Below are positions 14,092 to 37,832 of a stretch of 64,000 bases of DNA, piece by piece; position 1 is the first letter of the stretch, and every line of letters starts with the position of its first letter. The DNA is from Pseudoprimorskyibacter sp. (GTDB lineage Bacteria > Pseudomonadota > Alphaproteobacteria > Rhodobacterales > Rhodobacteraceae). Where the stretch lies: positions 11,724 through 75,723 of the forward strand of contig JAQXDR010000070.1 of assembly GCA_029251265.1 (NCBI GenBank), in the 5' to 3' direction. Below the pieces are notes generated by a model, which had not been told where the DNA came from, ran no database searches, and worked only from the letters and a program-made list of their open reading frames with translations. Position numbers and translations under genes: made by a program.

Positions 14092-14338
14092 TTAGTCCCC
14101 ACAATCCGAACGCTCTGCATAGCCCTATTATCTGCGCAGCCTATGATTAATATCAAGACCCGCCATGTCGCAAGCCGCGCTTGGGTGACCCTTGTGAGAT
14201 CAAACCATCACCAGCTTAGCGTTTGCCTCCGTCTGAGGGGGGTGGCTAAGCTGTTAGCAACATCGCAGCGTGTCATGGTCTTTTCTGCATGATACGGGCG
14301 CTCTTGACCTGACGGCGCCACGACAGTAACCACCTCAT

Positions 14339-14390
14339 GTGGCGATTTGTTACCGGATTGTGGGCCACGTTAAACATGCCGCTAAAAGGT
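14339..14390 (+). promoter_or_regulatory. probable SAM-II (metA-type) riboswitch in the metZ leader
   Basis: GUGGC GAUUUGUUACCGGAUUGUGG GCCAC GUUAAACAUGCCGCUAAAAGG: a P1 helix GUGGC/GCCAC, a GAUUU loop start and a 3' GCUAAAA tail, as in alphaproteobacterial SAM-II elements. It is followed by an imperfect hairpin and a U7 run at 14427-14433, about 30 nt before the metZ ATG. Confidence 0.5.
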
Positions 14391-14462
14391 CAGCCGAAAG
14401 CCCCCTTTCGCTTGGCCGGAACGGGGTTTTTTTGTGGGCTGGAATGCCTTGGGAGATGGGAA

Positions 14463-22313: not shown

Positions 22314-25223
22314 TCATCCCAATTCAGCCAAACGCGCGACTGCCTCCTGCAGCTTGCTTGCCTCTTCTTCGCGTATGGCCAGATTTGCCTTGGTTTCTGC
22401 GATGACCTCATCCGGCGCCGAAGCAAGGAATTTCGGATTTTTCAGCCGCCCCGCCATGCCGCCTATCTCCTTGGCCAGTTTCGTCAGGCTTTTGTCCAGT
22501 CGCGCTTTTTCCTTTGCGACATCGATGATGCCATCCAGTGGCAGTCCAAAGGTTGCGCCCGGAATCGGAATGGTCACTGTTCCCTTGGGGAAATCGGCGA
22601 CGTGTTCTGCGGTCTGCACCTTTGTTTCACGGCGGATCATAGCAGAATTGGCGTCCCATGCTGACTGCGCATCTGTATCAATGTCGCGGACCAGAAGCGG
22701 GATTTCCGCGCTGGCCCTGACCCCCATCTGAGCCCGGGCAGACCGGATGCCGTCGATCAGGGCGATCACCAGCGCAATCTCTTTTTCGGCCTTGGGGTCA
22801 ACGGCATCTGCGGCCGGGTCTTCCGGCCAATCGCCATGCACCAACATTTTGGGGCGATCACAAAGGCTACCCCAAAGCTCTTCTGTGACAAAAGGCATGA
22901 TCGGATGCAGCATCAACAGGATTTGATCCAATGACCATGCCAATGTGGCCAGCGTTTCTGTTTTGGCCCCTGCATCTTCGCCATAGATTGACGGTTTGGA
23001 GAATTCGATGAAACGGTCGCAAAATGTGCCCCAGGTAAAGGCATACAGCGCCAGTGCCGCGTCATTGAACCTATAGTTTGTCAGTGCCTCGTCAACGGTT
23101 TCGCGGGTTTTGGCGATTTCTCCGATGATCCATTTGTTGACGGTCTGCGTGGTTTCAGGCCGCGCACCGGTATGGTTTTCAAACGCCCCGTTCATAGAGG
23201 CAAACCGCGCCGTGTTCCAAAGCTTGGTCGCAAAGTTGCGGTAGCCTTCGATCCGTTTCTTATCGAGCTTCAGCACGCCGCCAAGGCTGGCCATAGCCGC
23301 ATTGGTGAACCGCAGCGCGTCGGCGCCGTATTCATCGATGATGTCAAGTGGATCGACCACATTGCCCAGAGATTTGGACATTTTGCGACCTTTATCGTCG
23401 CGGACAAGGCCGTGCAGGTAGACGTCGTGGAAGGGGATCTGATCAACGACGGCGAGCTGCATCATCATCATTCGGGCGACCCAGAAAAAGAGGATGTCCT
23501 GTCCCGTGACCAGCACGCTTGTCGGGAAAAAGCGCCTCAGGTCGTCGGTTTGCTCTGGCCATCCTAGTGTACCAATCGGCCAGAGACCTGAGGAAAACCA
23601 AGTATCCAAGACGTCAGGGTCACGCGTTAATACAGCGTCGCTGCCCGCCATTGCCTGAGCTGCTGCTTTGGTTTCTGCACAGTACTGTTCGCCGTTTTGG
23701 TCAAACCACACAGGAATCTGATGCCCCCACCAGAGTTGGCGGCTGATGCACCATGGTTCAATGTTTTCAAGCCAGTGGTAATAGGTTTTCTCGCCGCTCT
23801 CGGGAACAATTTTTACAGTACCGTCCTTGACCGCGTCCAGAGCAGGACCAACGATTTTGGCTGCATCCACGAACCATTGGTCGGTCAGCATCGGCTCTAT
23901 CACGACCTTGGACCGATCGCCAAAGGGCTGCATGATGGCTTTTGCCTCGATCAAGGGCACGTGGGCCGCAGGATCGTCCTCTTCACCCAGTTTGGTGCCC
24001 AGACGCACGTCATCGGCGCGGGTCATGACGGCCAGACCCTCGGCGGTAATTTCAGACACCACAGCCTTGCGGGCCTCGAACCGGTCCATCCCGCGCAGGT
24101 GGTCGGGGACGAGGTTGACTGCATCGACCTCGGCTTCGGTCAGGGTCTTTTCTCCTTTGGCCACCGCCAGCGCCAGCGCGGCAGCCTCGGCATAAGGGGC
24201 GCCATCGGCTCGCAACGCGCCGCGTGTGTCCATCAGGCGGTAACAAGGAATCCCACCACGTTTGGCCACACCATAGTCGTTGAAATCATGCGCGCCTGTA
24301 ATCTTGACCGCGCCAGAGCCGAATTCGGGGTCGGGATAATCATCTGTGATGATCGGAATCAACCGGCGATGTTCTTTGGGTCCAACCGGTATTTCGCACA
24401 GCTGCCCGACAATGGGCGCGTAACGGTCGTCCGACGGATGTACCGCCACGGCACCATCGCCTAGCATGGTTTCCGGGCGGGTCGTCGCGATCGAGATATA
24501 GTCTCGTGTTTCGCGCAGGGTGACAGTCCCGTCTTCGTCCTTTTCGACATATTCATAGGTGGCCCCGCCCGCGAGCGGATATTTAAAGTGCCACATGTAG
24601 CCCGGGGTTTCGACGTTTTCGACCTCTAGATCACTGATCGCGGTTTCAAACTTTGGGTCCCAGTTTACCAAACGCTTGCCCCGATAGATGAAGCCTTTGT
24701 TATACATCTCAACAAACACGCGAATGACGGCATCGTGAAAATTGCCGTCCTCGCCCTCGGGCGCATTCGGCGCGCCCGACATGGTAAATGCCTCACGCGA
24801 CCAGTCGCAGGACGCACCAAGACGTTTTAACTGGCCTATAATCGTGCCGCGGGATTTCTTTTTCTGCTCCCAAACACGCAAGGTGAAGGCATCGCGACCC
24901 ATATCGCGCCGCGGTGGTTCGCCGTTTGCAGCCATTTCGCGTTCGGTCACCATCTGCGTGGCGATCCCCGCGTGATCCGTACCCGGTTGCCATAGCGTGT
25001 CAAAGCCGCGCATGCGGTGCCAGCGGATCAAGATGTCTTGAAGTGTGTTGTTAAACGCATGTCCCATATGCAGCGATCCGGTCACATTGGGGGGGGGGAT
25101 CATGATGCTAAAGGCGTCATTACGACGCTTATTCGCCCCTGCTGCAAAGGCACCAGTACTTTCCCAGGCTTTTGTAATGCGGGCTTCGGCCTCTGCGGCG
25201 TTAAAGCTGTCAGCAATTGTCAT
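22314..25223 (-). CDS. valS: valine--tRNA ligase
   Basis: About 970 aa with HMGH and KMSKS motifs and a C-terminal coiled coil. The start is probably [13 protein letters not shown] (25223) rather than the ORF-track start at 25244. Confidence 0.95.
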
Positions 25224-25333
25224 GGGGGCGGGCCTTTCGTGCATTTACCGGTTTGGAATGATGTAACCAAACCTGGAACGCGGGGAAAGGGCCAAAGACC
25301 CTCCTAAAGTCCAACCCGAGCCTATCATCAGGA

Positions 25334-25610
25334 AATAAAAAAACGGCGACACATGGGAGGAATGTGTCGCCGTTTCAGTCCACGGGTGCCCAAAGGGAGG
25401 AGAGGGCGACCCGATCTGTTGTGCCGAGCGTCTTGACGATCAGCGAAATCCGTGACGGTGGCGCAAGGGAGGAAGCGCGCCACCGTCGAGATGTTCCTAC
25501 GCCTTGGGAGGAGGTAAGGCGCCGGAAGGTTGGACACTTGCGTCAGGGAGGAGGCGACGCGCCGGTCCGGTTATTGAACAAGCCGCAGGGAGGAGGACGC
25601 GGTCTGTCCA
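25334..25610 (-). ncRNA. tandem CcsR / 'cuckoo'-type sRNA array: six stem-loops with CCUCCUCCC-type loops, ending in an intrinsic terminator
   Basis: Hairpins by plus-strand coordinates: 25581-25603, 25538-25561, 25500-25521, 25454-25485 (11-bp stem), 25384-25412 and 25341-25375 (14-bp stem). The last is followed on the minus strand by a U-run. Every loop reads (C)CUCCUCCC or UCCUCCC on the minus strand. The array lies directly downstream of the DUF1127 gene. Confidence 0.7.
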
Positions 25611-25616
25611 AATCAC

Positions 25617-25826
25617 TTAATGTCTTTGCGCCTCTTCCCAGGCGACGCTGTTTAGCATGGAACGATCCAAGCCCAGATCGGCCAGATCACGTCCGCTGAT
25701 GGACTGAAGTTCTGCCAGAGTGCGTCGGTACGCTCTGTACTGAGCCACGCGGCGGGTTGCGCTGTGCGCAACTGCTGCAATGCGGTCGGCCAAAGACGAA
25801 GAATTGTTTAGCTGTACAAGTGCCAT
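25617..25826 (-). CDS. DUF1127 small protein (CcaF1-like)
   Basis: 69 aa with an Arg-rich C-terminal half: YRAYRRTLAELQSISGRDLADLGLDRSML, which is the DUF1127 signature. Confidence 0.85.
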   Translation of the reverse strand: MALVQLNNSSSLADRIAAVAHSATRRVAQYRAYRRTLAELQSISGRDLADLGLDRSMLNSVAWEEAQRH

Positions 25827-26086
25827 GGTCTCATCCGCCTTTTCTGTTCTTTCGTTTGCGTTGTCGCTAACATGCGCCTATTGCTGCGATTGCACAATGC
25901 ACATTGCTGCAATGCAGCTATGCAACAAATGCAAGGGGTTGCGATGGATTTAAAGTGCTGAAGATCTATGCAGCAATCGGGTGGTTGACGTTGCACAACT
26001 TCCCACCATTTTATGTCGCGAACGCCTTTGTATTGTGCACGGGTTCGATCGTTGCAAATGACCATTCATCAAGGTAGCTGTTATTT

Positions 26087-34218: not shown

Positions 34219-34294
34219 GCCGGTATAGCTCAGATGGTAGAGCACGTGATTTGTAATCTCGGGGTCGGGGGTTCAAGTCCCTCTGCCGGCACCA
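34219..34294 (+). tRNA. tRNA-Thr (anticodon UGU)
   Basis: Cloverleaf folded by hand: acceptor GCCGGTA/TGCCGGC, D arm GCTC-AGATGGTA-GAGC, anticodon stem-loop CGTGA-TTTGTAA-TCTCG, T arm GGGGG-TTCAAGT-CCCTC, and an encoded CCA. Confidence 0.9.

Positions 34295-37756: not shown

Positions 37757-37832
<76 letters not shown>

Follow-up and report, generated by a model that had tools for sequence, protein, structure and literature searches.

The minus strand of a 64-kb stretch of DNA from a metagenome-assembled genome (MAG) of Pseudoprimorskyibacter sp., hereafter called the window, very probably carries an operon of the ccaF1-ccsR type, that is, the CIN1 locus of the cuckoo family of small RNAs (sRNAs). 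In this arrangement a short gene with a DUF1127 domain, of RNA-binding type, is followed directly by six hairpins whose loops resemble the anti-Shine-Dalgarno (anti-SD) sequence. Cuckoo RNAs are defined by two to four hairpin modules in which an anti-SD motif stays unpaired in the loops (PMC4615179), and a DUF1127 open reading frame (ORF) directly beside clustered cuckoo RNAs in Rhodobacterales is what defines CIN1 (PMC4615179, PMC8034643). A preliminary description of this DNA had likened the locus to CcaF1/CcsR, and its organization bears that out. The locus type is already well described as a stress-response locus of Rhodobacterales. Beyond what is known, the window and its relatives add a conserved LysR-type box in the promoter; even together with a gap in existing models and a range of array sizes, the gain is modest.

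The first hairpin begins 5 nt past the DUF1127 stop codon, and the loop of each of the six hairpins that follow the gene contains a (CCU)CCUCCC motif (Table 1). Sites of CCTCCC are under-represented in the window (15, versus 25 expected from shuffles), and 6 of the 15 fall within 25355-25593, all on the minus strand. By a Poisson estimate, ~0.05 such sites are expected per 240 nt, and the probability of finding six or more is roughly 1e-11 per stretch. Both the minimum-free-energy and the centroid folds of 25330-25620 (-) place every motif in a hairpin loop, unpaired as in cuckoo RNAs. These 291 nt fold with an energy of -117.7 kcal/mol, compared to -87.1 +/- 4.5 kcal/mol for shuffled sequences (z = -6.8), and none of 200 shuffles did as well.

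The preliminary description had placed the six hairpins correctly to within a few bases, by their inner stems. It gave the fourth hairpin a stem of 11 bp rather than 12, and it overlooked a seventh, motif-less hairpin in the spacer between the fourth and fifth (fold z = -2.3), which differs from relatives by one compensatory pair, CG to UA. Its call of the last hairpin as the terminator agrees with a terminator scan, which reports 15 pairs followed by a T-run at 25334-25376, the pattern of a Rho-independent terminator. The motif in the terminator loop is missing in two sister lineages with 74% protein identity (L008 and L012; UUCUGACAA) and present in other genera.

The six motif hairpins probably form three two-hairpin (HP2) units, a division that had been suggested from their spacing. 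Stem lengths in relatives alternate between short and long (e.g. 6, 13, 8, 12), as in an HP2 unit. We built a covariance model, R1, from 24 units of other genera, with no sequence from the window clade. Over the whole window R1 yielded two matches only, 25450-25531 (48.9 bits, E = 2.3e-8) and 25338-25417 (46.6 bits, E = 7e-8), which coincide with units 2 and 3. The folding of each unit that the preliminary description had proposed gave a clear signal for unit 2 (-37.7 kcal/mol, z = -5.7) and unit 3 (z = -6.1) and none for unit 1. Both hairpins of unit 1 show compensatory changes relative to the sister lineages.

Covariance models from Rfam, also proposed as a check, find the array as well: at the E-value threshold, the window yields no sRNA matches other than those to ar14 and CcsR1 listed in Table 1. 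The CcsR1 model is narrow. Its gathering score went unreached in every orthologous array sampled, the best being 56.6 bits in a MAG designated L019. The ar14 gathering score was passed in the orthologous arrays of Albirhodobacter (65.2 bits) and Celeribacter (65.0 bits), and a Sinorhizobium meliloti control, SmelA075, scored 89.9 bits against the same model.

Table 1. Features of the locus and other annotated elements of the window (hp, hairpin; positions are those of the window)
Feature	Position	Strand	Details
ccaF1-like gene	25617..25826	-	69-aa ORF with C-terminal DUF1127 domain
hp1	25574-25611	-	13 bp, loop UCCUCCUCCC
hp2	25532-25568	-	10 bp, loop CCUCCUCCC
hp3	25494-25527	-	11 bp, loop ACCUCCUCCC
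hp4	25448-25492	-	12 bp core + 4 outer bp, loop CUUCCUCCCU
Motif-less spacer hairpin (seventh)	25423-25444	-	between hp4 and hp5; 8 bp, loop CAAG (GAAA in relatives)
hp5	25383-25413	-	9 bp, loop UCUCCUCCCUUU
hp6	25341-25375	-	14-15 bp, loop UCCUCCC, then U7 (U-run 25334-25340); intrinsic terminator
sRNA unit 1 (hp1+hp2), putative	25529..25613	-	both loops full CCUCCUCCC; atypical, degenerate
sRNA unit 2 (hp3+hp4), putative	25450..25531	-	typical CcsR-like HP2 unit
sRNA unit 3 (hp5+hp6), putative	25334..25417	-	hp6 doubles as intrinsic terminator
Rfam ar14 (RF02344) match	25490-25616		hp1-hp3; 47.4 bits, gathering 58.8; window-wide E = 1.4e-5
Rfam CcsR1 (RF02791) match	25450-25532		hp3+hp4; 39.6 bits, gathering 65.3; window-wide E = 3.5e-6; full-length match
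Rfam CcsR1 (RF02791) match	25338-25410		hp5+hp6; 26.1 bits, gathering 65.3; window-wide E = 0.034
Core promoter (predicted) ATTGTGCAATCGCAGCAATAGGCGCATGT	25870..25898	-	TTG 25895-25897, A(-12) 25873, T(-9) 25870
Distal LysR-type box TGCATTTGTTGCAT	25920..25933	-	TGCA-N6-GCAT, T-N11-A; -72 to -59 from predicted start
Promoter-proximal second box TGCAATCGCAGCAA	25881..25894	-	-33 to -20; one mismatch to TGCA-N6-GCAT
SAM_alpha riboswitch	14329-14405	+	51.5 bits, above gathering score
tRNA gene	34219-34291	+
tRNA gene	37760-37832	-

Orthologous loci show the same architecture with different stems. We fetched loci from Albirhodobacter, Limimaricola, Oceaniglobus, Celeribacter and a Vannielia MAG, plus the further MAG L019. 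In all six, the DUF1127 gene is divergent to an apbC/mrp-type gene and is followed by a gene-free gap with an array on the same strand, comprising 11, 10, 12, 8, 23 and 5 motif hairpins, respectively. Of the 86 motifs in nine loci, 84 lie in loops, closed by four or more contiguous pairs; these motifs are borne on 60 distinct stem sequences, with a mean stem of 8.7 bp, compared to 3.6 bp when the flanks are shuffled. Of the 17 consensus pairs in the 24-unit alignment behind R1, 15 have changed on both sides. Paired cells make up 93% of this alignment; shuffles gave 74%, none of 500 reaching the observed share, and slid controls gave 37-58%. The loops are invariant and the stems hypervariable yet paired, which is the hallmark of cuckoo RNAs and the outcome that the preliminary description had anticipated from a comparison of relatives.

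These comparisons also bear on whether the array might consist of intergenic repeated palindromes, either repetitive extragenic palindromic (REP)-like elements or stacked terminators, that have no sRNA function and lie near a DUF1127 gene by coincidence. The hairpins are indeed tandem, GC-rich and intergenic, and they leave the curated Rfam thresholds unmet. Yet the motif is strictly strand-specific, confined to loops and found at no other hairpin in 64 kb, and stems co-vary around invariant loops across genera. The association with DUF1127, the adjacency by which CIN1 is recognized, occurs in 8 of 8 independent lineages sampled, and the homologous RNAs are experimentally validated sRNAs (PMC8034643, PMC4615179). 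We therefore regard functionless palindromes as highly improbable.

The preliminary description considered the position of the array directly upstream of valS, and its copy number, worth documenting; neither proved distinctive. Judging from gene order, it is the divergent apbC/mrp gene that is the conserved neighbour, whereas valS flanks the array in particular lineages only. The six distant arrays precede unrelated genes: the far-side gene varies from locus to locus (rsmJ, lysE, an opposite-strand uvrD, an epimerase and others). HP2 cuckoo RNAs are known to cluster in Rhodobacteraceae in up to 9 copies, always beside the DUF1127 group and with variable far-side flanks (PMC4615179), and three HP2 units are published for Ruegeria pomeroyi. 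Three units upstream of valS are thus ordinary, also beside the 5 to 23 hairpins of the orthologues.

The same gene order speaks to a second alternative, in which the hairpins act in cis on valS, as its leader or as an attenuator, with the anti-SD loops or the terminator controlling valS and no trans-acting sRNAs being made. valS begins ~110 nt past the terminator on the same strand, and its adjacency to the array is kept in the window species and in the two sister lineages, which retain gene order and the whole array. Against a leader stand the unrelated genes beyond the distant arrays, when the DUF1127 gene is always upstream of the array, and the closure of the array by a 15-bp terminator with U7. 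Moreover, the ribosome-binding region of valS, GAAAGG, is insufficiently G-rich to pair well with the loops, and one L012 variant has an extra gene between array and valS. Control of valS by the array is in our view very unlikely.

Some features of valS itself came to light in this comparison. Its start is most likely at 25223 (-), giving a 969-aa protein (MTIADSF...), and not at the upstream ATG at 25244 taken from the ORF list, because the reading from that ATG meets a stop in L012 and gene callers give 969 aa. The leader contains a conserved hairpin, GGTTTGG-N10-CCAAACC, at 25250-25273 (-) and a conserved stretch, CTTTGGCCCTTTCCCCGCGTT, at 25277-25297 (-). Both are common to the sister lineages, where the remaining spacer is only ~75% identical, and they are probably the valS promoter or leader.

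The DUF1127 gene was correctly called in the preliminary description as a 69-aa minus-strand ORF ending at 25617. Residues 25-57 match the Pfam family DUF1127 (PF06568) with 39.2 bits (E = 5.8e-10), above the gathering cut-off of 23.3. The exact protein recurs on many metagenome contigs with identical neighbours: ftsY, the apbC/mrp-type gene, the divergent DUF1127 gene, a gap of ~390 nt and valS. The ValS and Mrp/NBP35 proteins of the window have identical counterparts in a MAG that NCBI labels Pseudoprimorskyibacter sp. (Paracoccaceae, Rhodobacterales). A profile search with the protein returned ~1,700 relatives, and those that were named were all 69-74 aa long and from Rhodobacterales. The size class, the C-terminal domain, the linkage to an array and the profile search are proxy evidence that this protein may be an orthologue of CcaF1 (RSP_6037). 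Alignment with the sister lineages shows 93% identity over residues 27-69 and just 42% over residues 1-26. At the DNA level the DUF1127 coding sequence (CDS) is the fastest-evolving part of the locus, with 68-71% identity to L008 and L012 compared to 84% for the array, 88% for apbC and 90-94% for valS, and nearly all of its change lies in codons 1-26. Divergence confined mainly to this segment agrees with CcaF1 of Rhodobacter (Cereibacter) sphaeroides, whose N-terminal 21 aa are dispensable (PMC8034643).

Change within the array is of another kind, since the indels that separate the window from the sister lineages are 1 nt each. This matters for a third alternative, that the region codes for protein, through a 111-aa plus-strand ORF at 25364-25699 or the minus-strand ORFs at 25328-25537 and 25497-25616. 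Open frames do exist, and the plus-strand ORF has an apparent Shine-Dalgarno (SD) sequence and start codon, GGGAGGAatGTG. However, none of the three ORFs has a Pfam match, the 1-nt indels shift frames between lineages, and the open frames differ in relatives. The plus-strand ORF also runs antisense to the conserved DUF1127 CDS, and its "SD + GTG" is what the terminator loop motif yields when reverse-complemented. That ORF was dismissed as an artefact from the outset, rightly so on this evidence, and we give a coding function hardly any credence.

How the ccaF1-ccsR-type operon might work can be outlined from its homologues; anatomy and conservation are observed directly, and each functional step is carried over by homology. 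Transcription would begin near 25861, from a conserved, presumably stress-responsive promoter with a core of RpoH/sigma-70 geometry flanked by LysR-type boxes. The resulting transcript of ~530 nt would contain the 69-aa DUF1127 ORF and then a 283-nt 3' untranslated region (UTR) ending at the hp6 terminator. ORF and array, presumably co-transcribed, lie on one strand with no terminator between them and no space for a separate promoter. An RNase E-type activity would then cut the 3' UTR at U-rich single-stranded spacers to release three two-hairpin sRNAs of ~80 nt; candidate cleavage sites are GAUUUGG ahead of hp1, AACCUUCC ahead of hp3 and, past hp4, GGAUUUCG. The four-unit precursor of R. sphaeroides, 680 nt long, has its RNase E sites at GUUUCC, CUCUUC and ACUUC (PMC8034643). 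By analogy with CcaF1, the DUF1127 protein may bind the precursor and tune its maturation and stability. Finally, the unpaired C/U-rich loops would mimic the 16S anti-SD sequence, pair with G-rich ribosome-binding regions and repress target mRNAs, for which there is precedent in CcsR1-4 acting on flhR (PMC8034643) and in NfeR1, which uses three redundant loops against transporter mRNAs (PMC7143759).

Several observations count against this assignment. No Rfam family reaches its gathering score over the array; we attribute the shortfall to the poor performance of covariance models on the modular cuckoo family, in which RF02344 assumes exactly three hairpins and mis-annotates HP2 members (PMC4615179). 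The full 9-mer occurs in only three of the six loops, the other three having UCCUCCC. Unit 1 matches R1 with 31.0 bits, with filters off only, has several non-canonical pairs in hp2 and folds no better than shuffled sequence (z = -0.2); because of this score and fold we call it degenerate. A search of the window for SD-like targets of the loops found ordinary ribosome-binding sites only and nothing specific. Lastly, the predicted promoter scores 8.5 bits with a matrix that we built from 221 published R. sphaeroides RpoHI/II promoters (training median 13.1 bits), a score matched by 22% of shuffles; relatives score 8.3-15.1 bits.

As an observation apart from the target search, an AGGAGGG occurs at 25299-25305 (-), ~30 nt past the terminator, with six bases complementary to the loop sequence CCUCCU. 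It is present in the window species only (the window and loci L002-L007) and replaced in the sister lineages.

Upstream of the DUF1127 gene lies a block of ~75 nt that is conserved in all 12 loci compared, from at least eight genera and including DUF1127 paralogues without arrays. Its consensus, ccaTGC.tTT.cTGCATaGC.GCaTTG-N13/14-ATTGTGCA..tGCAGCA, corresponds to 25881-25940 (-) in the window and recurs in L001, L008, L012 and L018-L024. The predicted core promoter has the geometry TTG-N21-A-N2-T, and the start predicted from it, ~25861, leaves a 5' UTR of ~35 nt. Promoters of RpoHI/RpoHII have TTG at -36 to -34, A at -12 and T at -9 (PMC3441632), and the same aligned core element is the top upstream site for the RpoH matrix in all 11 loci scored. 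As judged from its sequence, the core would fit RpoH or alphaproteobacterial sigma-70 geometry equally well, so the geometry assigns it to neither sigma factor. A DUF1127 paralogue of R. sphaeroides, RSP_0557, is a member of the RpoHII regulon whose promoter, ATTG...CTTATTT, is similar. We rejected the predicted RpoH promoter of RSP_0847, which has a similar -10 region, as the ccaF1 promoter: RSP_0847 is ompR/cenR, and its 3' UTR gives SorX.

Two boxes of LysR type accompany this core. The distal box, TGC[AG]-N6-GCAT, is found at -72 (+/-1) to -59 (+/-1) in 11 of 12 loci from at least eight genera, the upstream half being degenerate (TTCC) in the Vannielia locus, L024. The bare pattern TGCR-N6-GCAT occurs nine times in the window, where the longer conserved block has no other good match. 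At the position of the second, promoter-proximal box, L008, L012, L019 and L001 have a perfect TGCA-N6-GCAT, and the surrounding ATTGTGCA..TGCAGCA is conserved in all loci compared. A possible role for this box is that of a LysR-type activation site overlapping the -35 element and the spacer. The parallel comes from S. meliloti NfeR1, where the LysR-type activator LsrB binds an experimentally confirmed TGCA-N6-GCAT box at -72 to -60 that is needed for transcription (PMC10746234). In LsrB-type sRNA promoters, NfeR1 and AbcR1 among them, this T-N11-A box is centred near -65. The distal box of the window matches the NfeR1 box in sequence and, relative to a predicted start, in position. LsrB has been reported as unique to Rhizobiales (PMC11975290), and the 64-kb window contains no signature of a LysR-type regulator. 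We also compared the promoter of SmelA075, a pSymA-borne paralogue from Rhizobiales: the RNA clearly belongs to ar14, and its promoter shows no clear LsrB-type box.

Tentatively, then, the boxes at -72/-59 and -33/-20 may be regulatory and activation sites for a LysR-type regulator of ccaF-type DUF1127 genes, with or without arrays, throughout Rhodobacterales, a proposal that we hold possible rather than probable. If it is true, LysR-type redox control of the cuckoo/CIN1 locus would be ancestral to Rhizobiales and Rhodobacterales, and Rhodobacterales would possess an unrecognised LsrB-like regulator, despite the description of LsrB as restricted to Rhizobiales. CcsR induction, so far credited to RpoHI/II alone, would gain a second regulatory input.

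The divergent side of the same intergenic region has a candidate promoter of its own. The site GTTGACGTTGCACAACTTCCCACCATTT, at 25984-26011 (+), scores 12.1 bits with the RpoH matrix, ~76 nt ahead of the start of apbC/mrp. Its conservation extends to the sister lineages of the window clade and not to other genera, and the divergent Fe-S carrier gene may be transcribed from it.

Two of the comparison loci deserve mention in their own right. The Vannielia sp. MAG (GCA_024105635.1, L024:3217-4480) has 23 hairpins with the full CCUCCUCCC within a 1264-nt gene-free gap, more than the 18 hairpins that correspond to the maximum of 9 two-hairpin copies published in 2015. In the Oceanomicrobium pacificus locus (L018:2482-3225), one cuckoo-like unit separates two tandem DUF1127 genes, a layout that recalls a Sinorhizobium sRNA with two DUF1127 ORFs. 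We had taken this locus as array-less, a view overturned when Rfam found the unit after the first tandem gene, at ~2677-2778 (ar14 42.3 bits, CcsR1 34.6 bits). Among the matches listed in the contig scan, Rubellimicrobium (L001) has a DUF1127 paralogue without an array. Elsewhere in the window, the SAM_alpha riboswitch and two tRNA genes (Table 1) are ordinary and consistent with an alphaproteobacterial origin.

The value of the locus lies mostly in annotation. Rfam misses the array at its curated thresholds, in an abundant uncultured marine lineage of Rhodobacterales, so pipelines leave the ~280 nt before valS blank or call spurious ORFs there. The comparative set yields a cross-genus HP2 model, a range of array sizes (5 to 23 hairpins) and apbC/mrp as the conserved neighbour. 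The LysR-type box, for its part, suggests a second regulatory input to CcsR-type sRNAs and calls into question the restriction of LsrB-like regulators to Rhizobiales.

Among known systems, the ccaF1-CcsR1-4 locus of R. sphaeroides (RSP_6037 and RSs0680a-d; PMC8034643), also in the order Rhodobacterales, is one of the closest. Both encode a ~70-aa protein with a C-terminal DUF1127 and a variable N-terminus beside a conserved domain, and both have tandem two-hairpin sRNAs in the 3' UTR, with CCUCCUCCC loops, unpaired U-rich spacers that resemble mapped RNase E sites and an intrinsic terminator at the end. This multi-CcsR layout in the 3' UTR predominates in Rhodobacteraceae (PMC8034643). The window differs in having three units rather than four, the 7-mer UCCUCCC alone in three loops, a degenerate first unit, an extra motif-less hairpin and a CcsR1 score well below gathering (Table 1). 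Its organism is a non-phototroph-type marine MAG, for which dependence on RpoHI/II, processing by RNase E and binding by a CcaF1-like protein would be predictions from R. sphaeroides.

NfeR1/ar14 (RF02344) of S. meliloti (PMC10746234, PMC7143759) shares anti-SD loops, linkage to DUF1127 and a TGCA-N6-GCAT at ~-72 to -59. Unlike the units in the window, an ar14 RNA comprises three hairpins and is located on the 5' side of the DUF1127 gene, and the window falls short of the ar14 gathering score. The CIN1 locus of the cuckoo family (PMC4615179) is matched without any structural difference: modular hairpins, an unpaired loop motif, hypervariable stems, an HP2 cluster beside the DUF1127 orthologous group OG1, a variable far-side gene and the "222" layout, as scored for Ruegeria pomeroyi. 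Only the neighbours set the window apart, since valS and apbC/mrp are outside the flanks named for CIN1, which in Rhodobacteraceae include a benzoate transporter.

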